Shown here: positions 2,551 to 61,376 of the stretch, piece after piece
Layout: each line of letters begins with the position of its first letter
Position numbering within the stretch: position 1 is the first letter of the stretch
Virus record (IMG/VR): IMGVR_UViG_3300045592_000030
DNA: 64,000 nucleotides
Reading direction: 5' to 3' (one strand)
Origin: a virus
Program-made: the position numbers and the translations under genes
Notes under the pieces: model-generated
The model's input: only the letters and a program-made list of their open reading frames with translations
The model's database searches: none
Told to the model about the DNA's origin: nothing

Positions 2551-2581
2551 CAAAGGTACAAAGAATATTTGAAACAACAAA
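2551..2581 (-). promoter_or_regulatory. Host-type promoter (TTTG-N19-TACCTTTG) for the ATPase operon
   Basis: Minus strand reads TTTG ttgtttcaaatattctttg TACCTTTG. This fits the Bacteroides -33 TTTG / -7 TAnnTTTG consensus with a 19-nt spacer. Confidence 0.55.
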
Positions 2582-3340: not shown

Positions 3341-3348
3341 TACCTTTG
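3341..3348 (+). promoter_or_regulatory. -7 box TACCTTTG of the plus-strand operon promoter
   Basis: Perfect TAnnTTTG 26 nt before ATG 3374. The flanking ~55 nt are homologous to the promoter at 50734-50775. Confidence 0.5.
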
Positions 3349-4530: not shown

Positions 4531-4839
4531 ATGGCAGACGAAAAAACAAAGAAGGACGCAATGTCCGAATATGAAATGGTAAAGAAAGTGCTGGAAGCAC
4601 TTCACGACACCAAAGTGGCAAAAGGGACAAAGGTAATCATCGAGTGCACCAATGATGAAGGAGGCAGTGAAAAAATGAGCTTACACAAAATCATACATGG
4701 AACACCCTTCCAGCTTATCAAGATGCTGCATGCCGCGATGTGTGTTTACCCCGATTTCAAAAAACTCATCATTGCAACAGCACAACTCAGTGAAGTTGTA
4801 GTGTCTCATGTAGAAACACAAGAAAAAACAAACGAATAA
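4531..4839 (+). CDS. Hypothetical protein
   Basis: ORF 4444..4839. Likely start is ATG 4531 (MADEKTKKD). Confidence 0.5.
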   Translation: MADEKTKKDAMSEYEMVKKVLEALHDTKVAKGTKVIIECTNDEGGSEKMSLHKIIHGTPFQLIKMLHAAMCVYPDFKKLIIATAQLSEVVVSHVETQEKTNE

Positions 4840-4916
4840 GAAAATTAGCTTCGTTCAGAAATATTTGGTGGGGTTTGTGCTATCTGTTCCCTAATACGGG
4901 CATTTTAGACAAAAAT

Positions 4917-6628: not shown

Positions 6629-6663
6629 CAAAGATAAGAAAAGCCCCGCCGGGCTTAGGGACA
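6629..6663 (-). promoter_or_regulatory. Late-promoter-like motif copy 1 (TGTCCCTAA-N18-TATCTTTG)
   Basis: Plus-strand ttagggaca 6655-6663 and caaagata 6629-6636, with an exact 18-nt spacer. Lies 43 nt upstream of the holin ATG. Confidence 0.6.
6631..6656 (-). terminator. Intrinsic terminator after the fibre gene, embedded in the promoter spacer
   Basis: Minus strand AAGCCC-GGCG-GGGCTT followed by TTCTTATCTTT. Confidence 0.55.
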
Positions 6664-6755
6664 CCGACGGGGCAAACATAAAAGAAAACATACGGACAGA
6701 ACGCCCTATCCGTTCTCGATAATATCCACTATCTGACATTTATTTAATTAACAAT

Positions 6756-8971: not shown

Positions 8972-10897
8972 TTAATATATCAAATTCTTAAACTCATCCA
9001 TCGACGCAAGACTCTGTACGGCATCCTGCTCGCTGACATGATATTCTTTGTAAAATATCTTGTTATTTTCGGAGCATTTATGCAAACGTTGATGTATCGA
9101 TGCCTTACCTTCATTCACAAGCATATAAAACTCAACGATTTCGAGGCTGCTTTCCGGTGAATGACAAAGTACAGGCTCCTGCTTACCCGGCAGAATAGCA
9201 AGATATAGCAACTTCACGTAATATGATTTTGGTACTTGCTTCAATGCTTTATCAACCGAAATATGCTTTTCCTCTGCAAGTTTCGCGGCATTCTCCTTCA
9301 TCCGCAAGTCGGACACAATTAGTTTGTATTCCACGGGGATGACAACCGTTCCATCAGGCAAATCCGCATGTTTTTTCTTGCAGCCCTTCTGAATAGTTGA
9401 AGAAACTCCTTTCTTATTGGTGAAAATCATACGATGCTCGATTAAATATTGTAGATGTTTGCTATCAGTCTTATCAAGAATACCTTTATAGCCGGCATAG
9501 TGCTGTTTGCCTTTGCGAAAAGCGCGAATGCTCCTGCGCCGTATCTCTGCACGAGGCTTCACAAAGCTGCGGAAGAAATCATATTTACAGAAGCGAAAGC
9601 CATCATCGACTTTCTTTATCTGATAATCATTCTTCACAGTTAATGAATAGCGTCCTTCGTAGAACGACATTTGAAACGACATAGCTTCGCGCACCACCTG
9701 CTTATCATAACTGCCTATCAACCGATTGTCGCCAAAGCAACAGAAAAAGACGTGATAACGCTGCAAGATAATACTATCGCATTCTGCTATCGTTATCATC
9801 GCCATCAGTTGCGAGAGGCAACCACCAATCGGAAGTTTTACGGTTTTAGAAAAAGCCGTTACAAACAGCCAGCGAAGATAAGGACAAACGATCGTTTGAA
9901 ACATCACCGAGAAAACAACCTGTATGGAGGTATTTTCATAGAAATGCTTAATATCCGTCAATCCTACGTATGCTCCTGGATGTGTATCAACCCAATGGCG
10001 TATGATATTAATCATACAATACTTCGGATCGTTGGATAACATCGAGCGTCCCTTGATGCCGCTGTACACATTCCTCACGAGCTTATTGCGGAACTTCTGC
10101 TCCACGACAATCAGAAGAATATTCTGTACGATGCGGTCAAAGACATCCGAAATATCCGCGTTTCTGTCCTTATCACCCTTACCACGCTTATGAATAATAC
10201 GTCGCTCATTCGGTAATGGCTCATAGGTCTGAGTAGCTAACAGATACCAGATATAAGCGCAAACTTCTAAACGATGAACTTCGTACCAATTCTTGACAGG
10301 CTTAGAGCAATGTGTGCGTTCCATCGTGCGGTCAAATCCAGCGAGGATTATCTCACGTGATAGAACAAATCTCCGCATATTTTTCAGTTTCCTTTTCGAG
10401 TTGGCTGTCTTGAGTTCTTTAAAAATCGGGTCGTCTTGCCGGTAGCCCGTTGCGTTGCTTTCCGCTTTCACCTCGTCGCTACCCCAAAAAGGAAGTTCTG
10501 AGCCGTAATCACACCGCCCATACGCACCAGTGGCCGCATGGTCTTCCGTTATCTTTAGGCTTGCTGCCTGCGATGCGAGGGATTCCCTGTTTATGATATT
10601 CACTACCGCTTTGACAGCCGAAGCCCCGACGTAATTGTCATTGCCATTACCTGCGTGGTTGTTACCATTCAAAGTCCGAACCGAAGGATTCGGATTCCAA
10701 GTGTTGAGGTTACAACCGACGACGGAGCCGTCATCCTCGCCTTCGCTCTTCGATAAGGTTTCATCGGTATCGTTGTTCGTAAGGAAGGGATTGCCTTGCG
10801 ATACCGCGTCTGCCTTACCGTCAACCCACAGTTGATAGTACGAGAGTATTTCTTTAGCTCTCGGCACACAATCGTAGATATGTTTTTTCTTACTCAT
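8972..10897 (-). CDS. DGR reverse transcriptase with a long N-terminal extension that contains the TR
   Basis: RT motifs: RIIHKRGKGDKDRNADISDVFDRIVQ, VYSGIKGRS, LTDIKHFYE, LPIGGCLSQ (DGR-type SQ motif), and FGDN in place of YxDD. The first ATG after the TR is at 10378. Confidence 0.8.
   Translation of the reverse strand: MSKKKHIYDCVPRAKEILSYYQLWVDGKADAVSQGNPFLTNNDTDETLSKSEGEDDGSVVGCNLNTWNPNPSVRTLNGNNHAGNGNDNYVGASAVKAVVNIINRESLASQAASLKITEDHAATGAYGRCDYGSELPFWGSDEVKAESNATGYRQDDPIFKELKTANSKRKLKNMRRFVLSREIILAGFDRTMERTHCSKPVKNWYEVHRLEVCAYIWYLLATQTYEPLPNERRIIHKRGKGDKDRNADISDVFDRIVQNILLIVVEQKFRNKLVRNVYSGIKGRSMLSNDPKYCMINIIRHWVDTHPGAYVGLTDIKHFYENTSIQVVFSVMFQTIVCPYLRWLFVTAFSKTVKLPIGGCLSQLMAMITIAECDSIILQRYHVFFCCFGDNRLIGSYDKQVVREAMSFQMSFYEGRYSLTVKNDYQIKKVDDGFRFCKYDFFRSFVKPRAEIRRRSIRAFRKGKQHYAGYKGILDKTDSKHLQYLIEHRMIFTNKKGVSSTIQKGCKKKHADLPDGTVVIPVEYKLIVSDLRMKENAAKLAEEKHISVDKALKQVPKSYYVKLLYLAILPGKQEPVLCHSPESSLEIVEFYMLVNEGKASIHQRLHKCSENNKIFYKEYHVSEQDAVQSLASMDEFKNLIY
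10610..10731 (-). repeat. DGR template repeat (TR)
   Basis: 122 nt aligning without gaps to 11096-11217 (offset 486). Contains 30 coding-strand adenines and 10 AAY codons. Confidence 0.9.
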
Positions 10898-11086
10898 TTG
10901 TCCCTTTAAAGAAACTGAACTGCTTTCGCACGTATGGCTACGCGTCGCGCCGCTAAGCCGCGGCGCAACACTGCCGCCATCTTTCAGCTATTGGCCATTT
11001 GCCTTATGCTTGTGGCCGTAATCTCGTTAAGCCACTGCTCACATTTACAATTCGTATATTATTAATGTTAATTGTTCTCTTTTTAA

Positions 11087-13057
11087 TTATGCTATCAAGA
11101 CAGCCGAAGCCCCGACGTAAAAGTCAAAGCCATAACCTGCGTGGTTGTGACCATCCAAAGTCCGAACCGAAGGATCCGGACTCCAAGTGTTGAGGAAACA
11201 ACCGACGACGGAGCCGTGTACCTGTCGTTTACCGACACCGGCGTTATTGGTCGCATACGTCCATAGATAACAATTCTCGTAGGTTCGGGCACCGCCGCCA
11301 ACGGTCTTTGCACAGAAGAGCGAAAGGGCATAGTTGCTTGTCGCAACCCAAGCCTCATTAGCCAGGACCGATGGATAAGCATAACGCTGCGACAAGCCTT
11401 TTTCGATGTCTGCCTCGCCATCTATATCAGCCTCGTAACCGAAAGACTTTCGAGCGGGAAGATCATCAATACTGGCCGTACAGCGAAATTCCATTGACAA
11501 GTTACTGCTTGCATCTTGCTTGATAACATAGAAAGCACCGTCCGTCTGTTCAAAGCAACCATACGCATACGGCAGTATCTTGCCACGGTAAACGGGCATA
11601 GAACGTTTCAAGATAGCTTTTTTGCCAGTCAGTGAAGTGCCGTCAGAAGTCAGCGTCATACCGTCGGCAAACTCCATCAGCGTATAACTGTTCACGACAG
11701 CCGTCATCACACCATCTGCCATACCTTCACAATTAGGCACATCGCGCACAATGAAGTAATGCTTTAGAGCAGTCATACCCGTACCAGTGCTCACATCAAT
11801 ACTGCCATCAGTAGAGCATTTCATCTTACCGTCATCGCCATAATAGAAAATATGGCTCTTGCTGCCTATCATAGAGATAAGTCCGGCAGCGGAAATAGCA
11901 TCGAGAACACGTTGTGGCTCCAGCATCTCGACAATGCCATAATTACTATTGCCAGCGATACCTTGTACAAGTCCGTATTTAGTGCCGCTATTGGTAATAG
12001 CCGAATCGCCCCATGTATTATAATAACGTGCATCTGTGTTCGACACGATTACCTTCCATCCGCTGTTACCGCTGACAGCATCATCATTAAAAGTTGTAGC
12101 ATTCACACTGTCAAGTGGTGTAAGTCCTGCACCGAAACAGTTCAATGCCGTTTCGTTAAGCGTGCCGATTTCTGCATAGAGCAAAGCACACCATGCCTCG
12201 TAGAACTCATAATACTCACCTAAATAAGGTGTGCGAGTCAACGGATCGGTATTCTTTGCCTGTGCACGCTGTATGCTCTGTACGCAAGACGTGAACTGCG
12301 TAGGATAGCCGCCACCGCTCTTTTTATAAGAAGCCTTAAAGATACCATTAGGCGCGTCATAGGTTCCTGCAACAGCGGTGTTGTAGATACAATGCTGCTG
12401 TGTGTTAGTATCGCCGCTGAGCTTGCCATATACCTCGCCCATCGCACAAATACCATGTTTCGGCAACAGTTTTGCCATCTTGCCGTTCCAATAAGCCGGT
12501 ACAAGGCCAATACCCATGACATTAGTCTCTTTATCATCAACTGTCTTAGTATCTTTGAGAAGATACGGCTTGGTGTCCCAACAAAGATACAGATCCCCGT
12601 CGCTTCCATCTATTGCCACCGTGTCGCCATTTGTGGCCTTAGTCAGGCAAGTACCTTCAAGCGTATGCTGCTTCGCTCCGCCTTTTACAGTGCACAAGTG
12701 CAGATGCGATCCGATTTCATGTATAAGCGATTTGCTGCCATAAGTTGTAGCCGCATCCGGAGACTGCGCACCATTCTGACGTGCGAAACCGGCAAACTGA
12801 TTTTTCTCGGAAAATGCCGCCATCAACGCGGCAAACTGCGAAACGGTATCAGATGCTTTCTGTGCGGCTGATGTCGCCGACTCCGCCGCCGTGCGAGCCT
12901 CCGCAAGATCTCCTGCTGTATTGTCGCCCACTTTTTCAGTGAGCGTTTTAATTGTTACTCTGCGCACATGCCCATCTCTCTCGGCCACCACCGCGTCGGT
13001 GTCCTGTGGGTCGGTGATAAGGGTTGCGGTACCCAAGTCTTTAATTTTGCTTTCCAT
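11087..13057 (-). CDS. DGR target: tail fibre-like receptor-binding protein
   Basis: 656 aa in the fibre module, with the VR at its extreme C-terminus (...GSVVGCFLNTWSPDPSVRTLDGHNHAGYGFDFYVGASAVLIA). Confidence 0.8.
   Translation of the reverse strand: MESKIKDLGTATLITDPQDTDAVVAERDGHVRRVTIKTLTEKVGDNTAGDLAEARTAAESATSAAQKASDTVSQFAALMAAFSEKNQFAGFARQNGAQSPDAATTYGSKSLIHEIGSHLHLCTVKGGAKQHTLEGTCLTKATNGDTVAIDGSDGDLYLCWDTKPYLLKDTKTVDDKETNVMGIGLVPAYWNGKMAKLLPKHGICAMGEVYGKLSGDTNTQQHCIYNTAVAGTYDAPNGIFKASYKKSGGGYPTQFTSCVQSIQRAQAKNTDPLTRTPYLGEYYEFYEAWCALLYAEIGTLNETALNCFGAGLTPLDSVNATTFNDDAVSGNSGWKVIVSNTDARYYNTWGDSAITNSGTKYGLVQGIAGNSNYGIVEMLEPQRVLDAISAAGLISMIGSKSHIFYYGDDGKMKCSTDGSIDVSTGTGMTALKHYFIVRDVPNCEGMADGVMTAVVNSYTLMEFADGMTLTSDGTSLTGKKAILKRSMPVYRGKILPYAYGCFEQTDGAFYVIKQDASSNLSMEFRCTASIDDLPARKSFGYEADIDGEADIEKGLSQRYAYPSVLANEAWVATSNYALSLFCAKTVGGGARTYENCYLWTYATNNAGVGKRQVHGSVVGCFLNTWSPDPSVRTLDGHNHAGYGFDFYVGASAVLIA
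11096..11217 (-). repeat. DGR variable repeat (VR)
   Basis: 14 mismatches to the TR, all at TR adenines. Covers the last 41 codons of ORF 11087..13057. GC-rich 3' end cgtcggggcttcggctgtc is identical in both copies. Confidence 0.9.
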
Positions 13058-17806: not shown

Positions 17807-17841
17807 CAAATATAGCAAATGACAGACGGAACTTAGGGACA
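17807..17841 (-). promoter_or_regulatory. Late-promoter-like motif copy 2 (TGTCCCTAA-N18-TATATTTG)
   Basis: ttagggaca 17833-17841 and caaatata 17807-17814, with an 18-nt spacer. Lies 19 nt upstream of ATG 17788. Confidence 0.6.
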
Positions 17842-26205: not shown

Positions 26206-26240
26206 TAAAGATAGTGTTTCGGGATAGGATATTAGGGACA
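26206..26240 (-). promoter_or_regulatory. Late-promoter-like motif copy 3 (TGTCCCTAA-N18-TATCTTTA)
   Basis: ttagggaca 26232-26240 and taaagata 26206-26213, with an 18-nt spacer. Confidence 0.55.
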
Positions 26241-26279
26241 CGAAAAAGCTCATCAGTGCTTTACTTCATACGCACAACC

Positions 26280-26323
26280 GCAATACTCCTTACTTTCAAC
26301 TGCAATACTCCTTACTTTCAACT
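26280..26323. repeat. 22-bp tandem repeat x2
   Basis: gcaatactccttactttcaact at 26280-26301 and 26302-26323. The 16-mer ttcaactgcaatactc recurs at about 50978-50993. Confidence 0.85.
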
Positions 26324-26330
26324 GCTAAAG

Positions 26331-26383: not shown

Positions 26384-26454
26384 TTCTAAGAAATTGAAGT
26401 TGTTTTTCTAAGAAAAGTTCATCGTTTTTCTTAGAAAAGTAAGTTTCTAAGAAA
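26384..26454. repeat. Four spaced copies of the palindromic decamer TTCTAAGAAA / TTCTTAGAAA
   Basis: Copies at 26384, 26406, 26428 and 26445 (spacing 22, 22, 17), most preceded by gtttt. Confidence 0.8.
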
Positions 26455-32147: not shown

Positions 32148-32182
32148 CAAAGATACAAAACGGGGGAATTGACTAAGGGACT
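32148..32182 (-). promoter_or_regulatory. Late-promoter-like motif copy 6 (aGTCCCTtA-N18-TATCTTTG)
   Basis: taagggact 32174-32182 (2 mismatches) and caaagata 32148-32155, with an exact 18-nt spacer. Confidence 0.5.
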
Positions 32183-32262: not shown

Positions 32263-32301
32263 ACAAAAAAAACCGCACCGAAGAAAAATCTCCGGTGCGG
32301 T
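32263..32301 (-). terminator. Strong intrinsic terminator after the capsid operon
   Basis: Minus strand ACCGCACCG-loop-CGGTGCGGT followed by TTTTTTTTG. Confidence 0.8.
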
Positions 32302-34438: not shown

Positions 34439-36130
34439 TTACTTCTTGCCGTTGTCGAACATCTGTGCGGCATAAGGCTTCGACGGGTCGTAAACCTGCT
34501 GCACAGCGGCAATGCGAACCTGCTTTGCACCTGCGCCATTATCGACGGGAGCGTTTCCGGCTTCGACATTCTTACCGGCACTCTGGCCCATTTCCTTCAT
34601 CTGCTCGTCGCGGTCTTTCAGGTTCTGCTCCAGTTCGGCGATGCGAGCGGTCTTTGCGTCGATGTCTTTCTGTATCTCGGCCATCTTCGCGTTGAGCTCA
34701 GAAACCTGTTTATCGCTTGCGGCCTTTGCGTCGGCAGTAGCCTTCTCGTTTGCAGCTTTCTCATCTGCAAGAGCTTTGTCGCTTGCGGCTTTTGCGTCGG
34801 CAGTGGCTTTCTCGTTTGCAGACTTCAACTCGGCAATCTGAGCCTCGTAGTTAGCCTTTGCGTCGGCCAGCTTCTTCTCGTAGTCCTCCTGGGCTTTCTG
34901 AGCGGCTGCGGCATTGTCTGCTTTCTGTTTCTCACTTTCCGCCTTGATGTTGCCAATAGCGGACTCAAGCGTATCAAGCTGTGCGATGTTGAGGAACGAA
35001 CCGTTCTCAATCTCTTTCTCGCTACCAGTCTTTACGGCCAACTGCTCCACGTTGAGCAATGCGGCCACATTCTGATATTTCTTATCCATGTTGCTGTTAT
35101 TTTGTTGATTAGAATGAGCATTGATTTGTACTGTTGCAGGGGCTTGTGCCTGTGCTGCAATCTGCGTTGGTGCGGACATAGCCACATGCGCTGTTGCGGA
35201 AGAAGCGGTAGTGCGTGCGGATGCGGCATCCTGTGCGGCTGGAATACCGGCAGCTTTTGCCAAAGCTATCACACGGTCGAAAGCCTGGCCATAATCACAC
35301 TGGCCATTCGTCCAGATGCCTTTGGTCTTTTCAGCGTCGTACAAGTTGCCATGTATCATTTCATCCTTGCTCTTCGGGAAACTTTTCATAATGGCCGCGC
35401 GGAACTCCACGCCCGACTGAGCCAAATCATCGAGGATGATCTTATCGCCATCACTACCATCAGCCTTGCGGTACCATTCATTCTTATTGTAGCTATCCGG
35501 ATCGTAAAGCTCGCGATAGGTTTCACCGGTGTAAAGCTTATCCATATCACCCATCTTGTAGAACATGGCCATCACACCAATAGAGCCAAACTGGTCTTTC
35601 GGGTGCATGTACCATATTTCATCGCACATGCTGGCTAAGTACATAGCAGCCGACGCACACATACCATCGACCCACATCACTACCGGCTGCTTCTTGCTAT
35701 GAGCATAATCGATAGCTTGCTGGTAATCGTTGTGCGTCCATGCGGCTCCGCCTGGAGAGTTCACAACAAAGAGATGACCGACGCACTTAGGGTTGTCGGC
35801 ATTGCTCATAATCATATCGCGGTGGTCGGCACTTCCATAGGAACACAAGTCTCCGGCACGTGTCATTGGACCGTCGATAGTCATCACGTTTATGAATGGA
35901 TCGTTGATATTGTCTTGATAAGAAGAAATGCTCAACCCCGTTTCCGTAGAGATGTTCACATCCTGAATGACCTCCATTGTCGCGGCGTTGACCAACTGTC
36001 CAATCGTCTTTTCCATCGAAATGGGATAATGGCCGTTGAGATTTTGCTCCACCACATTGCGATAAGCTGCGGCGGCACTGGGCTCAATGGCAAATATCTT
36101 TGCGGTAAGTAATTCGTGTAATCCTCGCAT
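34439..36130 (-). CDS. Head maturation protease (ClpP/S49-like) fused to a coiled-coil scaffold domain
   Basis: VVNSPGG and MCASAAMY motifs. The Ala/Lys/Glu-rich C-terminal half has a repeated NEKATADAKAASDK. Start at ATG 36130. Confidence 0.7.
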   Translation of the reverse strand: MRGLHELLTAKIFAIEPSAAAAYRNVVEQNLNGHYPISMEKTIGQLVNAATMEVIQDVNISTETGLSISSYQDNINDPFINVMTIDGPMTRAGDLCSYGSADHRDMIMSNADNPKCVGHLFVVNSPGGAAWTHNDYQQAIDYAHSKKQPVVMWVDGMCASAAMYLASMCDEIWYMHPKDQFGSIGVMAMFYKMGDMDKLYTGETYRELYDPDSYNKNEWYRKADGSDGDKIILDDLAQSGVEFRAAIMKSFPKSKDEMIHGNLYDAEKTKGIWTNGQCDYGQAFDRVIALAKAAGIPAAQDAASARTTASSATAHVAMSAPTQIAAQAQAPATVQINAHSNQQNNSNMDKKYQNVAALLNVEQLAVKTGSEKEIENGSFLNIAQLDTLESAIGNIKAESEKQKADNAAAAQKAQEDYEKKLADAKANYEAQIAELKSANEKATADAKAASDKALADEKAANEKATADAKAASDKQVSELNAKMAEIQKDIDAKTARIAELEQNLKDRDEQMKEMGQSAGKNVEAGNAPVDNGAGAKQVRIAAVQQVYDPSKPYAAQMFDNGKK

Positions 36131-36454
36131 AATAGATATATTGTTTATTTCGATTTTGATTTCTACACCAAAAGTAAACAATACATTTTTCGTCAGGACG
36201 CAAAAATTAGGGGGAAAACCTTTGTTTTCGGGAAAGAGCAAAAAAAAAGTGAAAACAAAAAATCCGCATATCCTCACGGACAGCGGATCAACCATTGAAT
36301 TTATGAAATACAAAAAAATCAGCAAATGAAAGCGCATCCCTGCGCCATCATTTGCAATGCCTATAGATATGAATGAAACAATCTATTTTCTAACATACAA
36401 AACATTTCCGACATTTTTAACCTTTTCAATATACAATCTTACTATTCAATCTTA

Positions 36455-37066: not shown

Positions 37067-37822
37067 TTATACTTCTGTTTTTACCTTTTCGTCTTTCATT
37101 CCGTTGCTGATTTGCTCAGCCTCTTTTGCAGTGATATGCTCGAAGAATCGGTCAGAAAAATCTATGCGGTCGTTAGGCAAAATATTCGCGCGGTCAAGCC
37201 ATCGGTTTGTCATCCGTCGCAACGACTCGCGTTCTTTCTTGTCTGCTGACACGGGAATACCATACACCATGAAGAAGCGTTCCAACGTCTCCAGCCGTGG
37301 CCGGTCTATGCCACGTTGGTTACAGAAACGACGGTCTTGTATCATCCAGTCGAGCAAACACAAGACAAATTCATGTCTGAGCATTCCTTCCAGTCTGGTA
37401 ACACTGCTGCGGTCGAGCGAATAGCTGTTGTTGACGCGGATAAAACGTCCACCATCGCAAATCTCCTTTGGTGTGGCAATACAAAGATAGTCATAACATT
37501 CGTTGAGGAAGTTACCACTTTCCTTTGCCATTGTGCTTATTTCCTGCGCCGACGGCCATTCCTTTGCGTCCCGTTTGATGATTTTGTCCTTACCGTCGGG
37601 CGTGCGGCCACGAAGCATATTCTTCCATGCCATCTGCGAATAGCAATGATTGCGTGCCATGTCGCTCTCGCTCATCACGCGCAAGCCCATCGACAACACG
37701 ACATATTCCTGCGAGAAAGCACAGAACTGCAATGGCTGCTCCGGCGATAAGGGATGATCCGTATCGCGGTTGCGGTAGAACGCGCAAATGTACTGCGGCA
37801 ATCTAAGATAGATGTTAGCCAT
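37067..37822 (-). CDS. Hypothetical protein
   Basis: ATG at 37822, two nt after the stop of the upstream gene. Confidence 0.55.
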   Translation of the reverse strand: MANIYLRLPQYICAFYRNRDTDHPLSPEQPLQFCAFSQEYVVLSMGLRVMSESDMARNHCYSQMAWKNMLRGRTPDGKDKIIKRDAKEWPSAQEISTMAKESGNFLNECYDYLCIATPKEICDGGRFIRVNNSYSLDRSSVTRLEGMLRHEFVLCLLDWMIQDRRFCNQRGIDRPRLETLERFFMVYGIPVSADKKERESLRRMTNRWLDRANILPNDRIDFSDRFFEHITAKEAEQISNGMKDEKVKTEV

Positions 37823-38144: not shown

Positions 38145-38381
38145 TTATATTGCCTGACTGATGTCCTTACCCACATGCCAACATCCACAAATGGAACAGC
38201 GGTAAATAGTATATCCATCGTGCTTGAGCCACCAGTGGCGGCATAGCCAGTGTTTGGCCTTGTGCTCCGTAGAGAATGGCTGTTTGGGTTTCCATCGTCC
38301 TTGTTTCTTACTGTAATGCTCACGTGGCTGCTTACCTTTCGGATGCATCCGCCGGTCGTGGTAGGGTGTATAATCTTTCAT
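38145..38381 (-). CDS. Small basic Cys/His-rich (zinc-ribbon-like) protein
   Basis: 78 aa with CRHWW...CSICGCWH. Confidence 0.45.
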   Translation of the reverse strand: MKDYTPYHDRRMHPKGKQPREHYSKKQGRWKPKQPFSTEHKAKHWLCRHWWLKHDGYTIYRCSICGCWHVGKDISQAI

Positions 38382-38440: not shown

Positions 38441-39127
38441 TTATTTCTTCCCTTTCTCACGTTTTGCGGCATCTGCTTTTTTACGCAACTGCGCACTCTT
38501 AGCAATGAATGTTTTCATGCGCTTGTCAAAGTAGTTTTCCATGCTGTCTGCATAGTCAGCAAAGAGAGCCTGCTGCTCTTCGGAGCCCGTACTGCGCGTA
38601 TGGCGGAAAGCGGAGGAAAGCTGATGCAAGGCAGTAGCCACACCCTCAAACTGCGTGAAGTCGTATTCTTCCTGCGGAAAGAGCTCTTTCAGTTCCTGTT
38701 GAATGTCTATCAACTTACTTTCGACAATATCAGAGAGGAAAGTAACCATATTGAGATGGTAGCTGCACAGCTGCTTCACATTCTGCTTGTGTTCATCGTC
38801 AGCCGGTATCTTCTTCCACAAGTCGTTAATCTTGATGTCCTGCTTTTCGGTGTGGTGCAAGGTTTTTCGTTGCATGGCGGTCAGGATCATCATGGCAATG
38901 CGCTGGTCGTCTTGCTCCACTCCTTTACGAATGGCAAGAGGATTAGAACCGGGCCGCTCGGCCACCTTGAACATCTTGTTTCGATGCTCTACAAGTCGCT
39001 CGAATTTCTCATCATGGAACACCAGTTCCAGTACGGACATGTATTCCGACGTGCGGCACACATCAAGCTCCATCGGCATGGTGAACGATGGCAGCTTTTC
39101 ATAATTGATATATTCCTTCTGTTTCAT
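38441..39127 (-). CDS. Hypothetical protein
   Basis: 228-aa ORF. Confidence 0.55.
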   Translation of the reverse strand: MKQKEYINYEKLPSFTMPMELDVCRTSEYMSVLELVFHDEKFERLVEHRNKMFKVAERPGSNPLAIRKGVEQDDQRIAMMILTAMQRKTLHHTEKQDIKINDLWKKIPADDEHKQNVKQLCSYHLNMVTFLSDIVESKLIDIQQELKELFPQEEYDFTQFEGVATALHQLSSAFRHTRSTGSEEQQALFADYADSMENYFDKRMKTFIAKSAQLRKKADAAKREKGKK

Positions 39128-39908: not shown

Positions 39909-40142
39909 TTATTTTAAATGTTTCATATACCAATCAAATTTAGCACTTATCCTTCCGTAATAAGAGTCATAAATCCTCCTATTATATTCAGCCCTTTCAT
40001 ATCCTACAAAGAAACTATTACATTTACATGTATAAAAATCATTCAGATTCTCTAACTCGTTTGAAAAGTGTTCGGCTCTTTCTTTATAATATCCCTTAGA
40101 AAGTATCTTTTCCCGTAGCTTTTTTATTGTTCTTGCTTTCAT
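39909..40142 (-). CDS. Hypothetical small protein (AT-rich island)
   Basis: 77-aa ORF with an ATG start. Confidence 0.45.
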   Translation of the reverse strand: MKARTIKKLREKILSKGYYKERAEHFSNELENLNDFYTCKCNSFFVGYERAEYNRRIYDSYYGRISAKFDWYMKHLK

Positions 40143-40389
40143 ATCTATTTTCCTGTATTAAATTATGATGCTTTGCGAAAAGACATGGAGTCTTACCATC
40201 AGAACGTAGATCATTACAATCATCAGTGCAATCAACTCCACAATCATACTTTTTTAAGCATGTACCCCAAAGAGAAGTTGCGCATCCGTCTTCATCTTTT
40301 CCATATCAAGGGCAATCTTTGAAAGTTTTCTTCTTGTATTTTTTCCTATGGTGCATGACTGCATCAGGGAATAGTTCCTGCTGCTTCAT
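40096..40389 (-). pseudogene. Cys-rich ORF interrupted by a single in-frame TGA
   Basis: ATG 40389 sits 4 nt after the upstream stop. 25 codons are followed by TGA at 40306-40308, then 69 further sense codons (six Cys) to TAA 40096-40098. Confidence 0.45.
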
Positions 40390-40393
40390 TTCT

Positions 40394-40624
40394 TTACCTT
40401 CTCTTTTGCGTGATTTTTTTATAGATTTCATCTGCATGGTCAAACATCCATGTCATTCCCATACCAAACCCTTTCATGAAGAGCTGCTTTTCGTTATGCG
40501 TCATCTGATAAAGATGATGTTTCAGCAAAGAATCTTCCGCCTTGTCACCTTGGCGCATAGCCTCTTCGGTAATCAATTTTTCCTTTTCTTCCGGTGTCAT
40601 TTCTTTACCTCCTTTTTCTTCCAT
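40394..40624 (-). CDS. Hypothetical small protein
   Basis: 76-aa ORF. Confidence 0.45.
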   Translation of the reverse strand: MEEKGGKEMTPEEKEKLITEEAMRQGDKAEDSLLKHHLYQMTHNEKQLFMKGFGMGMTWMFDHADEIYKKITQKRR

Positions 40625-40803
40625 GTTTGGTAAGAAACATTTACTTCACGAAATGCGTAAAAAGTCTTACCGCAATTTTCGCATTGGACCTCTTCTCGTT
40701 CAAAATCGTCGTCTCCTTCAAAGGCTGTACCTACCTCTTGATGATGTCCGCAATAGGGGCAGATTAATTCATAACTGCTCCATGTATCAATATCTTCCAT
40801 CAT
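40597..40803 (-). CDS. Zinc-ribbon small protein
   Basis: CPYCG...CENCG pair. 68 aa. Confidence 0.5.
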   Translation of the reverse strand: MMEDIDTWSSYELICPYCGHHQEVGTAFEGDDDFEREEVQCENCGKTFYAFREVNVSYQTWKKKEVKK

Positions 40804-40805
40804 AA

Positions 40806-41048
40806 TTATTTCTCCTTTCTAAAAACCTTTGATGATATTCTTTTATATTTCACATCAGGGTTAAAATTCTTTGCTAAAAAATTTAAGCTGCTGTCCTTAA
40901 GTTCTTTAACATCTTCAGCAAATTCTTTTGCATCGGATTGTCGGTCCCCAAAATTCCGTAGGCTGTGCCATCTTTTATGTGCCTCAGGAGGCAAAATAAA
41001 CCATTCTTTAACAATATAACCATAATCAGTATTGCTAACTTGCGCCAT
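40806..41048 (-). CDS. Hypothetical small protein
   Basis: Track ORF starts at TTG 41093. The first ATG is at 41048, 14 nt after the upstream stop. Confidence 0.4.
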   Translation of the reverse strand: MAQVSNTDYGYIVKEWFILPPEAHKRWHSLRNFGDRQSDAKEFAEDVKELKDSSLNFLAKNFNPDVKYKRISSKVFRKEK

Positions 41049-41061
41049 ATCTAATCTCCAA

Positions 41062-41319
41062 TTATTTATTATTTTCGGTAAAATGTAATTCAACCTCTAC
41101 CGGATTATCCCCATAATTCATTTTATACCCCAATATTGATTTAATAGTCCCTTTCGGCAAGACCAGCCAGTCACCGTCAAACGACATGAAGTAATCTAAA
41201 TGTGGCTTTTTCATTGATAGTATTTCTTCCTTTAAAGGATTCACCGAAAGATAAAATCTGTTCATCTTGCTCTTAATGCTGATACCTTCTTGGTATCTTT
41301 CAAAATCTGAATCCGTCAT
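41062..41319 (-). CDS. Hypothetical small protein
   Basis: 85-aa ORF. Confidence 0.45.
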   Translation of the reverse strand: MTDSDFERYQEGISIKSKMNRFYLSVNPLKEEILSMKKPHLDYFMSFDGDWLVLPKGTIKSILGYKMNYGDNPVEVELHFTENNK

Positions 41320-41516
41320 ATCTGTTCCTCCTCTCCCAGATGGTTAGTGTTAACTTTTTTGCTTTTAGCTTTATCTCTCTCATCGGCATCGTCATCTCGA
41401 GCCATTAGAACAAGGCAAGCAAATATTGTCATCATCGCCATTATTATAATTAATCCTAATACTATAGCTCGTATGTTATCAAGTCTTGTGATCCAATAAA
41501 ATGTTTCCATAATCAT
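41316..41516 (-). CDS. Small single-pass membrane protein
   Basis: 66 aa with one hydrophobic helix and an acidic/basic tail. Confidence 0.45.
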   Translation of the reverse strand: MIMETFYWITRLDNIRAIVLGLIIIMAMMTIFACLVLMARDDDADERDKAKSKKVNTNHLGEEEQI

Positions 41517-41530
41517 CTAATTTTTAGTTC

Positions 41531-41704
41531 TTATCCATGAAATTTAATTAATAACTTTGTAATATCTTCTTTAATATCAAGCACCATTTTTTGATTTTCT
41601 TCTGAATAACACATTGACTCTACATAATCACATAGATCATATAAGTCTACAATAGCATCTTTTTTGTCTTTTTCAAAAATTTGACGATCTAAATCCGTTT
41701 CCAT
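41531..41704 (-). CDS. Unlisted 57-aa acidic ORF filling a gap in the track
   Basis: Hand translation: METDLDRQIFEKDKKDAIVDLYDLCDYVESMCYSEENQKMVLDIKEDITKLLIKFHG. Overlaps the upstream gene by 16 nt. Confidence 0.4.
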   Translation of the reverse strand: METDLDRQIFEKDKKDAIVDLYDLCDYVESMCYSEENQKMVLDIKEDITKLLIKFHG

Positions 41705-41880
41705 ACATATACCTTTTCTATGTCTTTTTCTGTGGCGTAATTCTTAATTCCTTTAACCTTGTAAAGGTAAACTCCTCTACTGTCTTTAAGCACTTCGGTA
41801 ATGATAGAGATCTTACCGATCATCTCTTTGTTTTTGTGACTTACAACCTTTACGGTGTCACCTAATTTAAATTTATTCAT
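41689..41880 (-). CDS. Hypothetical small protein
   Basis: 63-aa ORF. Confidence 0.45.
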   Translation of the reverse strand: MNKFKLGDTVKVVSHKNKEMIGKISIITEVLKDSRGVYLYKVKGIKNYATEKDIEKVYVWKRI

Positions 41881-41903
41881 AGTCTTTATGTTTAAATCAT
41901 TTT

Positions 41904-42329
41904 TTACTTATCAGTGCACTTGTTTCTTACCAGTTCGTTATATTCTGCTATCCAATCTGCTGGTATAGCCTTATTTGCATCGATATAACGCTTAATCCCA
42001 TCTTTTATCATGTCTATCCGTTTCCTGTCCCAGATAAATTTAGGCATTACTCCCAACGGTGGTCTATCTGTATTATCTTTTTTCGGATATTTGGCAAAAA
42101 ACACATCAAAATTAAGGTTTCCAATTATATCTCTCCAAAATGCGGGTCCTTCTTTAGTCCTCGACCACTCGAATCCACCATTATCAACACAAGAAGATGG
42201 GTCTATTTGAAATACGCCCACGTCAGCCTTGTTTCCTTGGTGAACTTGATTGCTAACCATTTTCTGAACTATTTCTATAGGGAAATCCTTGATTTGCCCT
42301 TTTAAATCTGACTCTTTAACTTTGTACAT
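41904..42329 (-). CDS. Hypothetical protein with GGFEWSRTKEGPAFW motif
   Basis: 141-aa ORF. The motif is common in small phage proteins of unknown function. Confidence 0.5.
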   Translation of the reverse strand: MYKVKESDLKGQIKDFPIEIVQKMVSNQVHQGNKADVGVFQIDPSSCVDNGGFEWSRTKEGPAFWRDIIGNLNFDVFFAKYPKKDNTDRPPLGVMPKFIWDRKRIDMIKDGIKRYIDANKAIPADWIAEYNELVRNKCTDK

Positions 42330-42331
42330 AA

Positions 42332-42583
42332 TTACTTATTTAATAAGGGAGGTATTGGCATCCAATAGTCAACGTCATCTAATTCTGCACTATCACATAA
42401 AAAATCACCTGTGTCACTCCATATAAATTCACCTTCATCAATAAACAAATATAACGTTGTATATTCATTATTTCCTTTTATATGACAAAGAACTTGTTTG
42501 GAACGCGACATTCCATCTTCTGATTCTTCTTTTGTTTCAGGAAGTCTTACTTTAGCATCTATCCATGTTTCTTGTTCTATCAT
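42332..42583 (-). CDS. DUF551-like small protein
   Basis: WIDAKVRLP...YWMPIPPL pattern. Confidence 0.5.
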   Translation of the reverse strand: MIEQETWIDAKVRLPETKEESEDGMSRSKQVLCHIKGNNEYTTLYLFIDEGEFIWSDTGDFLCDSAELDDVDYWMPIPPLLNK

Positions 42584-42935
42584 AATTAATATTTTTTAAA
42601 ATAAGCCTTCCTAAGAAAGAACTTATATCTTTAATCCGTAGGCAATCATATCTTTCCATAATTGGCTCTACTACATTATCTTTTTTAACTAAAATACATT
42701 TATCTGTTACTACTATGTTAGCTTCATCATCATCATCACGAAATAATTTAGCATCTAATCTACCCCACGGGCGTATATTGATATGGCCCATTCTGATATA
42801 TTCTAAACCCGCACTATTTAGATTTTCAACTATAAGATCAGCGGGAGAATACCATTCTCCGAATATATCCCTAAAACCCATATCAACACGTACATCGCTC
42901 GGTATAGGTATCATTATTCTATTTTCTTGTCTCAT
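42552..42935 (-). CDS. Hypothetical protein
   Basis: 127-aa ORF that overlaps the next gene by 32 nt. Confidence 0.45.
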   Translation of the reverse strand: MRQENRIMIPIPSDVRVDMGFRDIFGEWYSPADLIVENLNSAGLEYIRMGHINIRPWGRLDAKLFRDDDDEANIVVTDKCILVKKDNVVEPIMERYDCLRIKDISSFLGRLILKNINYDRTRNMDRC

Positions 42936-42942
42936 AATCTAC

Positions 42943-43284
42943 TTATATTAATATTTTAAACATTTCACATGATTTATCATCATTTGATTTGTATGTTATA
43001 AATCCTATCCTTTTATACCAGTCTGCTATCCAACTGGTACTATCATTTACATGTAAGTACAGATATTTGCACCCTTTTTGTTTTGCAATATCCTCAACTA
43101 TGGATATAAGTTCTGTGGCCATTCCTTTTCTCCTCTCATGCTCTGAAACATTAAGATTTGACAGGAACATGTTATGGCGTTCATTCTCATAATAGGTTAA
43201 CTCACAGAAAGCATTTCCGTGTTCCTCCATAATGTATATTGATACATCATCATTATCTGAATTTATGTTAGTAATTGTTTTCAT
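42943..43284 (-). CDS. GNAT-family acetyltransferase-like protein
   Basis: RRKGMATELI (R-x-x-G-x-A motif A). 113 aa. Confidence 0.55.
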   Translation of the reverse strand: MKTITNINSDNDDVSIYIMEEHGNAFCELTYYENERHNMFLSNLNVSEHERRKGMATELISIVEDIAKQKGCKYLYLHVNDSTSWIADWYKRIGFITYKSNDDKSCEMFKILI

Positions 43285-43286
43285 AA

Positions 43287-43467
43287 TTAATATTTTTTAC
43301 CGTTCTTATAGGGGCGCAGTTCATTGTACTTCATCTTTAGGTCAATGAATTTGAACAAGTCAATATTGCATCTTTTAGCAAGTGGGAACACATTCCTTTT
43401 CATGAAATCCGTGCGCCTTTGCGATTGAATAAGCACGGTCACGAAGTGCATTTAAATCTTGTTCCAT
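43287..43467 (-). pseudogene. Frame-broken remnant with a MazG-like N-terminus
   Basis: ATG 43467 gives MEQDLNALRDRAYSIAKAHGFHEKECVPTC, ending at the stop at 43375. A second frame stays open to 43287. Confidence 0.3.
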
Positions 43468-43482
43468 AACTACTTTTATTAA

Positions 43483-43650
43483 TTATATATTGTTATCTTT
43501 TTTTAATAGTTCATTTATTAAAACATCTGTATCTGAAATAGCTGTTCTTGCAATAATCTTTTTATCTGCATTAGCATTACTTGCCATTAAATATTTAGCA
43601 TATAGTTCCGTGGAAATGTACACTCTTACCAAATTAAAATTTTGTCCCAT
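43483..43650 (-). CDS. Unlisted 55-aa ORF, paralogue A
   Basis: MGQNFNLVRVYISTELYAKYLMASNANADKKIIARTAISDTDVLINELLKKDNNI. Starts 2 nt after the upstream stop. Confidence 0.5.
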   Translation of the reverse strand: MGQNFNLVRVYISTELYAKYLMASNANADKKIIARTAISDTDVLINELLKKDNNI

Positions 43651-43652
43651 AA

Positions 43653-44387
43653 TCATTCAATCATTAAATAGTCTTTTACCAGTTGCTCGTTGTACTTCAA
43701 AAATGAATCTCGTTGCTCTGCTGTATGGAAAGCAAGAAAATAATATCTATTTAGGCAATTGATTTCCATTATGATATTGTTAATCCTACTTATTACATAT
43801 TTAGTAAGGTGTATATCATCCCATTCTTCATCAGTGATAGCACCCCCGTAATAGGGCATGAGCTGGCTAATCATTGCCATTGCAAGTGCTGACTTGGCAT
43901 GCTTTTCATCATAGAAAACATTGCGATAATTATCACAAAAAACTTCGTATTCACTTATATCTTTTATTTCTGAATGTGTATCTATTTGAACACAATCCCA
44001 AGGAATATCTTTTCCATGTAAATCATCCCAAGTTTTTATAGTTTGTTCATTGTCTTTTATTAACTCAAAAATTACATCATTATGATCTTTTCTGAAAATG
44101 CCATTACATTGATAAGGACCGCAACCTTTTATTTTTTCATAATAACATCCTGCACACCTACAATCAGAAGAGCGACATACCGATGACACAACTCTTAATT
44201 TAGGGCCATTATATCCTAAAGGCCTAAGAATAGAATCTTCTTTTGGGTCTATTTCTTTTTTATGTCTGTTTTTAAATTCCTCATAACTGTCATTTTCGGC
44301 TTGTATTCTCTTATCTCTTTCTTCTTCTTCATGAAACTCTCCGTATTCATCATAATATCCTTGATTAGTCTGATATTTTACTGCCAT
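43653..44387 (-). CDS. Hypothetical Cys-rich protein
   Basis: 244-aa ORF flanked by the two paralogous micro-genes. Confidence 0.55.
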   Translation of the reverse strand: MAVKYQTNQGYYDEYGEFHEEEERDKRIQAENDSYEEFKNRHKKEIDPKEDSILRPLGYNGPKLRVVSSVCRSSDCRCAGCYYEKIKGCGPYQCNGIFRKDHNDVIFELIKDNEQTIKTWDDLHGKDIPWDCVQIDTHSEIKDISEYEVFCDNYRNVFYDEKHAKSALAMAMISQLMPYYGGAITDEEWDDIHLTKYVISRINNIIMEINCLNRYYFLAFHTAEQRDSFLKYNEQLVKDYLMIE

Positions 44388-44393
44388 AATTTT

Positions 44394-44546
44394 TTATTTT
44401 AAAAGTTCATTAATTAAACAGTCTGTATCTTTTACAGCCGTTTTAGCGATTATAATCCTATCAGAATCCGGACAGCTTGCCATTAAATATTTAGCATATA
44501 GTTCAGTGGCTATATATACTCTTACCATGTTTAAATCTTGTTCCAT
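44394..44546 (-). CDS. Unlisted 50-aa ORF, paralogue B
   Basis: MEQDLNMVRVYIATELYAKYLMASCPDSDRIIIAKTAVKDTDCLINELLK. Starts 2 nt after the upstream stop. Confidence 0.5.
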   Translation of the reverse strand: MEQDLNMVRVYIATELYAKYLMASCPDSDRIIIAKTAVKDTDCLINELLK

Positions 44547-44548
44547 AA

Positions 44549-45022
44549 CTATCTGTAATTATAAATTTTATTTTTAACTCCTTCACGTCTTGCAATAGAT
44601 GCAAGCATACATAGATCGCCTGAGTTATTGCATTCAACAAACCTCGGTCTCTTTGTGACATCTATATTCTTTCCGTCATATTCGAGTAGTCCCCAATTTT
44701 CTGGTATTTCTTCTGGAGATAATAGACCTTTCGGAATAAGATAGTATCTAAAATTACCACAGGCATTTTCTTTTTTACGACATTTCTTTTTGCTATCTCT
44801 CAAAAAATCACTCCTACTTGTTTTAATTTCTATCACATAAGATAGAAATCCATTCGTCCCCCATACATCAGGATTCTCAATCCCAATCGTAATGAGCTCT
44901 ATGGCTACGATTTTACAAGAGTCTATCATGGTTCCGTCGGAAGTGTATTTTATTCTTCCATTATGTAACCATCTTGCTCCTTCCTGGCATAATCTATAAT
45001 GTAATGAATCGGTAGCACTCAT
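44549..45022 (-). CDS. PD-(D/E)XK nuclease-like (MmcB-like) protein
   Basis: ENPD...VIEIKTSRSDF pattern. The call is by eye. Confidence 0.45.
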   Translation of the reverse strand: MSATDSLHYRLCQEGARWLHNGRIKYTSDGTMIDSCKIVAIELITIGIENPDVWGTNGFLSYVIEIKTSRSDFLRDSKKKCRKKENACGNFRYYLIPKGLLSPEEIPENWGLLEYDGKNIDVTKRPRFVECNNSGDLCMLASIARREGVKNKIYNYR

Positions 45023-45024
45023 AA

Positions 45025-45216
45025 TTATTTCTTTAAAAAGTCCTTACACTTTAAATTCTCTCCCCTGTGGTCTATCATATAGTACAGTCCTACCGTACCT
45101 TCTTTCAAATACCTTTTGCAGTTTTCTTTCCTCACGCATTTTCCATTCGTGCACATTGCTATGTCAGAATTTGGTGAGATAAATTGTACAGGATTTTTCT
45201 TTAAATCTGTTTCCAT
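45025..45216 (-). CDS. Hypothetical small Cys-containing protein
   Basis: 63-aa ORF. Confidence 0.45.
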   Translation of the reverse strand: METDLKKNPVQFISPNSDIAMCTNGKCVRKENCKRYLKEGTVGLYYMIDHRGENLKCKDFLKK

Positions 45217-45218
45217 AA

Positions 45219-45404
45219 TCAGTTATTTTTATTTACCTTAAACTTATCACAAAACTCAAGAATCCGTAGAATATCTTCTGCAAGGTCAATAACCTGCTTA
45301 TCCAGCGTATTCTTCTTCATTTCTGAAACTACAAACTTTTGATACATAATGATATTATCAAGAGTATTTATCGTTTCCAATTTTAACTGCTTCATAACTT
45401 TCAT
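45219..45404 (-). CDS. Hypothetical small protein
   Basis: Track ORF starts at TTG 45461. The first ATG is at 45404 (MKVMKQL). Confidence 0.4.
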   Translation of the reverse strand: MKVMKQLKLETINTLDNIIMYQKFVVSEMKKNTLDKQVIDLAEDILRILEFCDKFKVNKNN

Positions 45405-45483
45405 AGTTAGTCCTTTCCATTTCCGAATATCGCACAGAAAAAGAACAGCGCTACGATCCAAATTACTATAATCAATATTGCTT

Positions 45484-46017
45484 TCATTTGTCGGTGAATA
45501 TTTGTTTCAAGTAATCCTCGAGATTGATAATACGATAGGGTAGGGCATTCTTCTTACAGTCGTTGACAAAGGTAACATCCACATCATCCAGTGTCAACGG
45601 TGTGCGTTCCTTGTCTCTGTCTTTGCGTGCGGCATCTATCTTCGTGCGGTCGGGTCGGCGGATATATATCACTCGGATGTTGCACTCGTGCGAGAAATGC
45701 TCACGAAGATAGGACAAACCTTTTTCGTCGATGACATACACGTTGATGCGTGTTGTGGAAAGGTCTTTGAAGTTGGCCCAATATTCATATCCGCCATACT
45801 GCGTATAGGCGAACATATCCATCTTGTCATAGCCGATGTTCTTTGTCGGGTCGTGGAAGATATGCTCGCGGCGATTTTGCTCTCCCGGTCGCATCGGGCG
45901 TGTGGTGTGGCTGACCAGCACCTTGAAGCCTACGTCGGTCTTTTCCAACAACCGTGCGATGGTGTCCTTGCCGCTACCACTGGCACCAACGATACATAAT
46001 ACTTTTCTGCGTGCCAT
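45484..46017 (-). CDS. Guanylate-kinase-like (d)NMP kinase
   Basis: P-loop GASGSGKDT and SHTTRPMRPGE motif. Confidence 0.7.
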   Translation of the reverse strand: MARRKVLCIVGASGSGKDTIARLLEKTDVGFKVLVSHTTRPMRPGEQNRREHIFHDPTKNIGYDKMDMFAYTQYGGYEYWANFKDLSTTRINVYVIDEKGLSYLREHFSHECNIRVIYIRRPDRTKIDAARKDRDKERTPLTLDDVDVTFVNDCKKNALPYRIINLEDYLKQIFTDK

Positions 46018-50733: not shown

Positions 50734-50764
50734 GCAAAGGTAAACATTATGTCCATATTTACAA
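50734..50764 (-). promoter_or_regulatory. Host-type promoter (TTTG-N19-TACCTTTG) for the replication operon
   Basis: Minus strand TTTG taaatatggacataatgtt TACCTTTG. The surrounding ~55 nt are homologous to 3297-3362. Confidence 0.55.
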
Positions 50765-61249: not shown

Positions 61250-61376
61250 AATACCCAACGAAACAGCCCCGCCATTATCACAACGACGGGGCCGTAAAGA
61301 CAGAAAAAAACACATCCTTTCTGTTTACTGATCGTAAACCTAAAAAAATACTATGATAAAAAAAGAGTTCCTGAAG

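Follow-up and report, generated by a model that had tools for sequence, protein, structure and literature searches.

The 64,000-nucleotide stretch of viral DNA analysed here (the window) carries six copies of a bipartite motif ahead of structural and lysis operons, and a seventh copy lies just beyond its edge. Its source is best explained as an ~83.5-kb Prevotella/Bacteroidales phage with plasmid-like maintenance genes. Each copy joins a -7 box of the Bacteroidota housekeeping type, at a nucleotide-exact distance, to an upstream element whose family-wide core gives the motif TGTCC-N22-TAnnTTTG. The reading of these sites as late promoters is well supported by their position and conservation. 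We consider it probable that they are factor-dependent, with host sigma-A reading the -7 box and a phage-encoded specificity factor reading TGTCC; the phage-encoded factor itself is plausible. The initial annotation of this DNA described six copies, to which we add the seventh copy, the family-wide core and its clade variants.

A bipartite motif upstream of structural and lysis operons

The initial annotation reported a nonamer followed, after 18 nt, by a -7 box at six places in the window, and all six were recovered (Table 1). Allowing up to two mismatches in the nonamer, TGTCCCTAA-N18-TAnnTTT occurs six times against 0.36 expected, a count that none of 100 shuffles reached; the exact nonamer occurs four times against 0.35 expected, and none of 100 dinucleotide-preserving shuffles reached four. 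All six composite copies are on the minus strand and all are intergenic, in a window of which ~9.7% is intergenic. They stand 18-43 nt upstream of an ATG, every downstream gene being on the minus strand, in agreement with the earlier placement at operon starts. The annotation also raised the matter of nonamers within genes. With up to two mismatches on both strands there are ~170, mostly coding, and just six have TAnnTTT at exactly 18 nt; the composite motif has no coding copies. Five of the six annotated intervals and all six -7 boxes were placed correctly, and the interval given as 61215-61249 was off by one (61216-61250). The -7 boxes match TAnnTTT at every site, ending in G at four and in A at two. 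A scan of the window permitting one mismatch in TGTCC and/or in the box, with spacings of 21-23, returned no further intergenic copies; ahead of the head protease gene (~36,380-36,415) there is a degenerate TGTCG-N23-TAGATTGT, which taken alone does not make a credible copy.

Table 1. Late-type promoters of the window and the features around them; downstream genes were identified by PHROG, Pfam and tblastn
Feature	Position	Strand	Description
Late-type promoter	6629-6663	-	TGTCCCTAA-N18-TATCTTTG; before holin and two more lysis-region genes
Holin, 189 aa	6017-6586, ATG 6586	-	PHROG holin; Pfam Phage_holin_4_1
Intrinsic-terminator hairpin	6643-6673		z = -4.3; ends preceding operon; overlaps holin promoter, nonamer in loop
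Late-type promoter	17807-17841	-	TGTCCCTAA-N18-TATATTTG; before 648-aa structural gene
648-aa structural gene	ATG 17788	-	Heads tail/DGR block
Late-type promoter	26206-26240	-	TGTCCCTAA-N18-TATCTTTA; before portal gene; copy named in the initial finding
Portal, 611 aa	24348-26183, ATG 26183	-	tblastn: distant match to Polaribacter phage Leef_1 portal
Late-type promoter	32148-32182	-	AGTCCCTTA-N18-TATCTTTG; before 465-aa / 254-aa / large-terminase (665 aa) operon
Intrinsic terminator	32272-32301	-	13-bp stem, T8 tail; ~90 nt upstream of the 32182 promoter
Late-type promoter	61216-61250	-	TGTCCCTAA-N18-TATTTTTA; before tape measure gene
Tape measure, 1877 aa	ATG 61189	-	Tape measure PHROGs; Pfam PhageMin_Tail
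Possible hairpin	~61266-61293		Near tape measure promoter
Late-type promoter	63095-63129	-	TGTCCCTAT-N18-TATCTTTG; before three tail genes
Three tail genes, 193, 188 and 173 aa	ATG 63070	-	Downstream of 63095-63129 promoter

Several copies had been described as adjoining or overlapping a terminator. This is so for the hairpin at the holin site and for the terminator upstream of the terminase operon, which closes a head protease / 429-aa / 196-aa unit, and possibly so near the tape measure gene; the other copies have no significant structure. Folding was significant at one site of the six, that of the holin, with z between -0.6 and +1.3 at the other five, and no Rfam family matched at the motif. 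The tail promoter lies directly downstream of the replication module that contains the sliding clamp. No TGTCC promoter precedes the head protease / 429-aa / 196-aa unit (34439-36454) here, which means that part of the phage's late transcription falls outside the class.

Other repeated sequences were seen near some sites. Immediately upstream of the portal promoter come a 22-nt tandem repeat of 2.3 copies (26275-26325) and four copies of TTCTTAGAA, one of them inverted (26384-26453). An extra TTCTTAGAA is found at 63240-63248, ~110 nt upstream of the tail promoter, for a total of six copies against 0.45 expected, and the related strings TTAGAAA, TAAGAAA and TAGAAA follow four of the -7 boxes. 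These repeats may represent a pac site or a further regulatory site.

Distribution of the motif across the whole genome

The genome measures ~83.5 kb (JGI contig Ga0455830_011) and was assembled from the window and a remainder rebuilt from L159, L163 and L166. L159 extends 9.1 kb past position 64000 and encodes a replication module with a sliding clamp, an exonuclease and a 1167-aa protein, while L163 extends 9.8 kb beyond position 1 and encodes a Cro/CI-type repressor, ParA and a Rep3-type initiator; the close relative L166 bridged the remaining ~0.65 kb. A seventh exact copy, TGTCCCTAA-N18-TATCTTTG, lies just outside the window at L163:20800-20834. It is followed by a lone gene (L166:8210-8925) embedded among replication and maintenance genes, whose 212/213-aa product has an N-terminal lipoprotein-type signal (LFVSC) and a C-terminal transmembrane helix and is a candidate unimolecular spanin or other envelope protein.

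In the whole-genome census, all seven sites precede packaging, portal, structural, tail, tape-measure, holin or lipoprotein-plus-transmembrane (spanin-like) genes. Within the reconstructed genome, none was found before the primase/thyX/MazG, clamp/exonuclease, AAA/DUF7192, repressor, ParA or Rep operons, and the motif is likewise absent from the repressor's own divergent region. The replication, nucleotide-metabolism and maintenance operons have TTTG-type or other promoters instead. As the initial annotation had noted, the nonamer is absent from the three early-type promoters of the window, at 2551-2558(-), 3341-3348(+) and 50735-50742(-), two of which carry TTTG at -33. These three and the early-type promoters at L163:11169 and L159:2440 have a common extended box, TACCTTTGC, with ACGTAA or ATGTAA 4-5 nt past it in three of them, which points to another promoter subclass or to an operator that they share.

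The plasmid-like maintenance genes occupy L163:13454-20768 and comprise a Cro/CI-type HTH_3 repressor with a zinc ribbon, ParA and the Rep3-type initiator. No integrase was found anywhere in the genome, and the element may be a phage-plasmid. Elsewhere, the minus strand of the window bears a diversity-generating retroelement (8972-13057). Its reverse-transcriptase ORF (8972-10897) matches the PHROG reverse transcriptase at E = 1e-28, and a repeat of ~120 nt, lying upstream of and overlapping the annotated start of this ORF, matches the 3' end of a 656-aa gene (11087-13057). Between the template repeat (~10612-10731) and the variable repeat (~11098-11217) there are 14 mismatches, and at every one the template has A and the variable repeat a different base. 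An IS607-like insertion (51125-52952, +) encodes a serine recombinase (Resolvase, N-terminal HTH) and TnpB (OrfB_IS605 / Cas12f-like); it separates the tail module from the primase operon, is on the opposite strand and has its own TTTT/TATCTTTG promoter at 51113. Finally, an AT-rich block at 40000-46000 (GC 33-37% against ~47% elsewhere) with many very small ORFs may be an acquired accessory (moron-like) region.

Conservation in related phages

Metagenomes hold more than 600 homologues of the portal protein. Full contigs of the relatives are ~70-105 kb long (for example CADADN010000004.1, JAFZUS010000103.1, ONMN01000004.1 and ONDP01000003.1), and one relative, L135, is present in an isolate, Prevotella sp. 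MGM1 (contig NZ_BEWV01000204.1). For comparison we used the contigs of three graded relatives (portal identity 77%, 60% and 48%) together with 30 loci taken from species-representative genomes of GTDB, labelled in almost every case as Prevotella, Prevotellaceae, Bacteroidaceae or Bacteroidales and often of rumen origin; the set comprises 33 loci and 528 kb at 27-77% portal identity. On the gene strand of these loci, GTCC occurs exactly 26 nt upstream of TAnnTTT[GA] 39 times, against 0-2 times at each other offset from 4 to 51; counts for the opposite strand are 0-3 at every offset. A T, which the search did not impose, precedes GTCC in 41 of 45 aligned sites. The same alignment shows no conservation in the 18-22-nt spacer, with T-rich sequence flanking the sites upstream and A-rich sequence after the box.

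The relatives' sites also sit before corresponding genes. TGT[CA][CA]-N22/23-box is found at most 500 nt upstream of the portal gene in 17 of 31 related loci, and other sites precede homologues of the 465-aa gene, the 648-aa gene and the head protease (L140, L142, L146). In L127 the site orthologous to 17807-17841 stands before the 704-aa homologue, and L130, L140, L143 and L148 have it at the equivalent position. The 77% relative (L123) retains even AGTCCCTTA, the variant with two mismatches ahead of the terminase operon, and L125 has AGTCCCTAT there. Rigid spacing is thus preserved at orthologous operon starts although the spacers themselves have diverged, and conservation in relatives, a check proposed in the initial annotation, came out in favour of the motif. 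In the most distant clade (L151-L158, portal ~27-29% identical) no such sites were found, and L150 has TGTCC with N23.

Among the head protease promoters of the relatives, those with N22 have TGTCC in L140 (1186) and L142 (4520) and AGTCC in L146 (4706); in L125, TGTCC with 20-nt spacing lies upstream of the head protease. In L146, a sequence resembling a tRNA (4770-4850, ending ...GGTTCGACTCCC...CCA) follows immediately on the late-type promoter of the head protease.

An exact-pattern scan of IMG/VR for TGTCCCTAA-N18-TAnnTTT returned at least 118 single matches and was uninformative, since 14 specified bases give such counts by chance in a collection of that size; among the matches listed, only L091 had two same-strand sites. 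A megablast of 10 kb against GenBank phages gave no match, tblastn of the portal against phages and plasmids gave remote portal matches only, and a single-protein portal search of IMG/VR returned nothing. In the literature, of which our coverage was incomplete, we found no description of the motif or of late promoters of Prevotella/Bacteroides siphophages or myophages.

A family-wide core, lineage-specific extensions and the -33 position

The nonamer of the initial annotation divides into two parts of different reach. Its TGTCC part belongs to the family-wide core, and its CTAA part is lineage-specific. Other lineages extend the core differently, with TGTCCTTTT three times in L130, TGTCCGC in L138 and L139, TGTCCCC in L144 and TGTCCCTAC in L148, and further clades have alternatives at the same spacing, TGTCA (L134, L136, L147) or TGTAC (L131-L133). 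The extensions are homogeneous within a genome: across 40 within-genome site pairs, ten of them from this phage alone, identity at nonamer positions 6-9 is 70% against 35% between genomes, a within-genome value that 0 of 2,000 label permutations reached. The spacers are 33-35% identical within and 27-29% identical between genomes. Homogeneity within and difference between genomes, together with TGTCA and TGTAC in sister clades, lends indirect support to a phage-encoded factor.

Differential RNA sequencing of Bacteroides thetaiotaomicron and Segatella copri gave a host consensus of TAnnTTTG at -7 with TTTG, not TGTCC, at -33; the -33 box was detectable at just ~15% of S. copri promoters (PMC7366714; bioRxiv 10.1101/2024.04.05.588293). 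A -33 box at so few Segatella promoters means that the -7 box alone may suffice, and that TGTCC need not be activating. In the sequences compared here, TTTG peaks 23-25 nt upstream of all other TAnnTTTG boxes (spacers of 19-21 nt). The nonamer spans 27-19 nt upstream of its box at a single invariant spacing, approximately -39 to -31, ending 18 nt before the -7 box; at none of the six window sites is there a TTTG 19-21 nt upstream of the -7 box, and the nonamer covers that position. Because its span includes the TTTG peak, the element occupies the -33 slot. The nonamer had been proposed as a fixed-spacing substitute for the -33 element. The fixed spacing and the lack of TTTG stand, with the refinement that the element lies physically within the -33 slot and not beside it.

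Search for a phage-encoded factor

Searches of ~60 ORFs of the window, L159 and L163 against Pfam and PHROGs detected no sigma factor, MotA, AsiA, Ogr or other activator. Neither the Pfam scans nor the precomputed Pfam columns for the whole ~83.5-kb genome contain a sigma-70-family domain, which favours a non-sigma factor acting with host sigma-A. The ~60 ORFs and the precomputed columns likewise yielded no Pfam or PHROG match to MotA or AsiA, a search by sequence that would miss analogues. Among the scanned ORFs are replication and nucleotide-metabolism functions and many unknowns, the only regulator being the Cro/CI-type repressor beyond the window. The initial annotation had recognised no factor gene in the window and suggested a search of the remainder, which turned out to be equally devoid of a recognisable sigma or activator gene. 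Its proposal of a phage-encoded activator or sigma-like factor is therefore left plausible, and consistent with the lineage-specific extension, but with no such gene recognised.

Two proteins are candidates for the factor by position only. The genes of a 251-aa protein (37067-37822, -) and its 228-aa neighbour (38441-39127) close the early/middle region just before the head module, and do so likewise in L130, L140, L142 and L146. The former has 61 homologues, none with a Pfam domain, and an invariant N-terminus, MxNIY; its AlphaFold2 model has a pLDDT of 85, and Foldseek against the PDB and BFVD gave no match with E below 0.2. That it redirects RNA polymerase is speculative. The 228-aa protein has six homologues and a model with a pLDDT of 51. 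No family match was obtained for a basic, Cys-rich 78-aa ORF (38145-38381), whose conservation does not extend to L142 or L146. A PDB sequence search with four candidate factors returned nothing.

A proposed model for late promoter recognition and its alternatives

That these are late promoters, as the initial annotation proposed, is supported by all the predictions open to computation, namely absence of the motif from coding sequence, orientation with the genes, a place at packaging, head, tail and lysis starts in all seven cases, absence from replication, nucleotide-metabolism and maintenance operons, and retention at rigid spacing in relatives. From sequence we infer that transcription starts at these sites, late in infection, and that it requires a phage protein. 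Each promoter would keep the housekeeping -7 box TAnnTTTG of Bacteroidota, with the -33 TTTG replaced by a phage-specific TGTCC, lengthened in this phage to TGTCCCTAA. Host RNA polymerase with its primary sigma factor would bind the -7 box, and a phage specificity factor made earlier in infection would contact TGTCC, standing in for the missing contact of sigma region 4 with -33. Such a factor might work as an activator of class-II type or, as a pair resembling T4 MotA/AsiA, by sigma appropriation. Seven separate packaging, head, tail and lysis operons would in this way be switched on together, and the terminators in front of several sites would insulate the late units from read-through.

Four features, a short asymmetric core, spacing that is exact to the nucleotide at ~40% portal identity, restriction to one gene class and the existence of clade variants, favour a stereospecific partner of RNA polymerase and disfavour a free-standing operator or an RNA signal. 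We regard as possible, though less likely than not, the more specific proposal that an undescribed, non-sigma-70-like phage protein redirects Bacteroidota sigma-A RNA polymerase to TGTCC-N22-TAnnTTTG, and that sister clades carry matched factor/promoter pairs (TGTCC, TGTCA, TGTAC and the extensions) that would be naturally orthogonal switches.

A short asymmetric 5-bp core at rigid spacing is also what a single holoenzyme-bound sigma might leave, and the whole motif could then be the site of an alternative sigma factor, either a divergent one of the phage or one of the host, with TGTCC as its -35-like element and a -10-like element that happens to match the housekeeping box. Phage sigma factors such as T4 gp55 and SPO1 gp28/gp34 escape family models, so the lack of a sigma-70-family domain in any ORF of the ~83.5-kb genome weighs against this without settling it. 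Known alternative sigmas, however, normally alter the -10 element too, and here it is the canonical TAnnTTTG; a host sigma is at odds with an extension that is homogeneous within a phage and variable between phages. We judge this explanation unlikely.

A repressor could instead be the protein that reads TGTCC(CTAA). The element would then be an operator placed over the -33 region of constitutive -7-box promoters, silencing late genes in a plasmid or prophage state, by analogy with the operators of P1 C1, which are dispersed and asymmetric. The HTH_3 repressor, ParA and Rep3 initiator encoded in the genome make a carrier state plausible, most Segatella promoters can do without a -33 box, and lineage-specific variation of the site would suit any phage-encoded DNA-binding protein. 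Yet a conserved core of just 5 non-palindromic bp is short for a stand-alone operator, a nucleotide-exact distance to the -10 element across portals ~40% identical is rare for operators, and the site is missing from the repressor's divergent region. On balance such an operator seems quite improbable.

We give an equally low probability to strong host sigma-A promoters that need no factor, in which TGTCC would either extend or replace the usual upstream contact, or belong to a T-rich UP-like region, and would have no temporal meaning. The perfect -7 boxes, the T-rich sequence before many sites and the empty-handed search for a factor agree with this. Against it, TGTCC differs from the host -33 consensus, the replication and maintenance promoters of this same phage use TTTG with variable spacing of 19-21, the motif is confined to one functional gene class at seven of seven sites, and TGTCC/TGTCA/TGTAC clade variants are not expected of a conserved host sigma.

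Finally, although the nonamer lies in the loop of a strong hairpin with a T-run at the holin site and several sites adjoin terminators, a role as an RNA-level or DNA-transaction signal (terminator or processing, antitermination, packaging or recombination site) is very improbable, and its RNA/terminator form essentially excluded: five of six copies do not fold significantly, Rfam has no match, the spacers are unconserved, and the exact -7 register and the 18-43 nt to the start codon would go unexplained.

Significance

To our knowledge, temporal gene control in Bacteroidota phages other than the crAss-like phages is essentially uncharted, and Prevotella and Segatella are hard to manipulate genetically. 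With a sharply defined class of putative late promoters, direct tests could address which phage protein would reprogram the primary sigma holoenzyme, an unusual one in Bacteroidota, by what means the -33 contact can be replaced, and whether the clade variants are orthogonal promoter/factor pairs that could serve as switches in gut Bacteroidota. The motif is also an annotation tool, flagging predicted late operon starts in hundreds of uncultured rumen and gut phage contigs; since it marks such starts, it marks structural and lysis genes whose sequence family is unknown.

Comparison with known promoter systems

Phage sigma cascades (SPO1 gp28 and gp33/34; T4 gp55) likewise place a class-specific consensus before late genes. 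The SPO1 and T4 cascades change the -10 element, whereas the promoters described here retain the -7 box of the host, and the genome has no detectable sigma-like gene. Nor does the motif qualify as a promoter of an alternative or ECF sigma, its -10-type element being the housekeeping TAnnTTTG and the genome encoding no recognisable Sigma70 domain.

Phages P1 (Lpa), P2 (Ogr) / P4 (Delta) and Mu (C) have dispersed late operons with a good -10 and a poor or absent -35 element, served by one small phage activator made earlier, an arrangement like that proposed here; P1, moreover, is a plasmid prophage, a further likeness to this putative phage-plasmid. The sites themselves differ. The P1 Lpa site is a 9-bp inverted repeat at about -22, between -35 and -10; here the corresponding spacer is unconserved within and between genomes. 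P2-type late promoters carry a TGT-N12-ACA dyad at about -55, bound by the zinc-finger activators Ogr/Delta, whereas here no ACA follows TGT after 12 nt, there is no dyad, the element lies at about -39 and none of the ORFs scanned matched the Ogr/Delta family. Mu C binds a dyad overlapping -35; the core here is 5 bp, asymmetric and without a dyad.

Bacteroidota sigma-ABfr housekeeping promoters share the identical -7 box, followed by an A-rich leader without a Shine-Dalgarno sequence (PMC7366714). They differ in having TTTG at -33 with variable spacing of 19-21 nt, in place of TGTCC(CTAA) at an invariant one.

The closest parallel in architecture is with T4 middle promoters. The T4 MotA box, (a/t)(a/t)(a/t)TGCTTtA with the consensus TTTGCTTTA, is centred at -30, whereas the element here, TGTCCCTAA or TGTCC(CTAA), does not fit the MotA consensus and lies at about -39 to -31. 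T4 middle promoters control middle genes, and those described here precede structural and lysis genes predicted to be late, in a host phylum, Bacteroidota, with sigma-A and a -7/-33 geometry. With box sequence and position different and no MotA/AsiA homologue detected by sequence searches, the motif is not a member of the T4 MotA/AsiA family. The two are alike in that a host -10-type element is kept while a phage-specific, asymmetric box of ~9 bp at a fixed distance replaces the -35 element, in that many copies precede a phage gene set that is, or here is predicted to be, temporally co-regulated, and in that no new sigma would be needed. If the reading proposed here is true, the non-sigma factor would be the Bacteroidota counterpart of T4 sigma appropriation.
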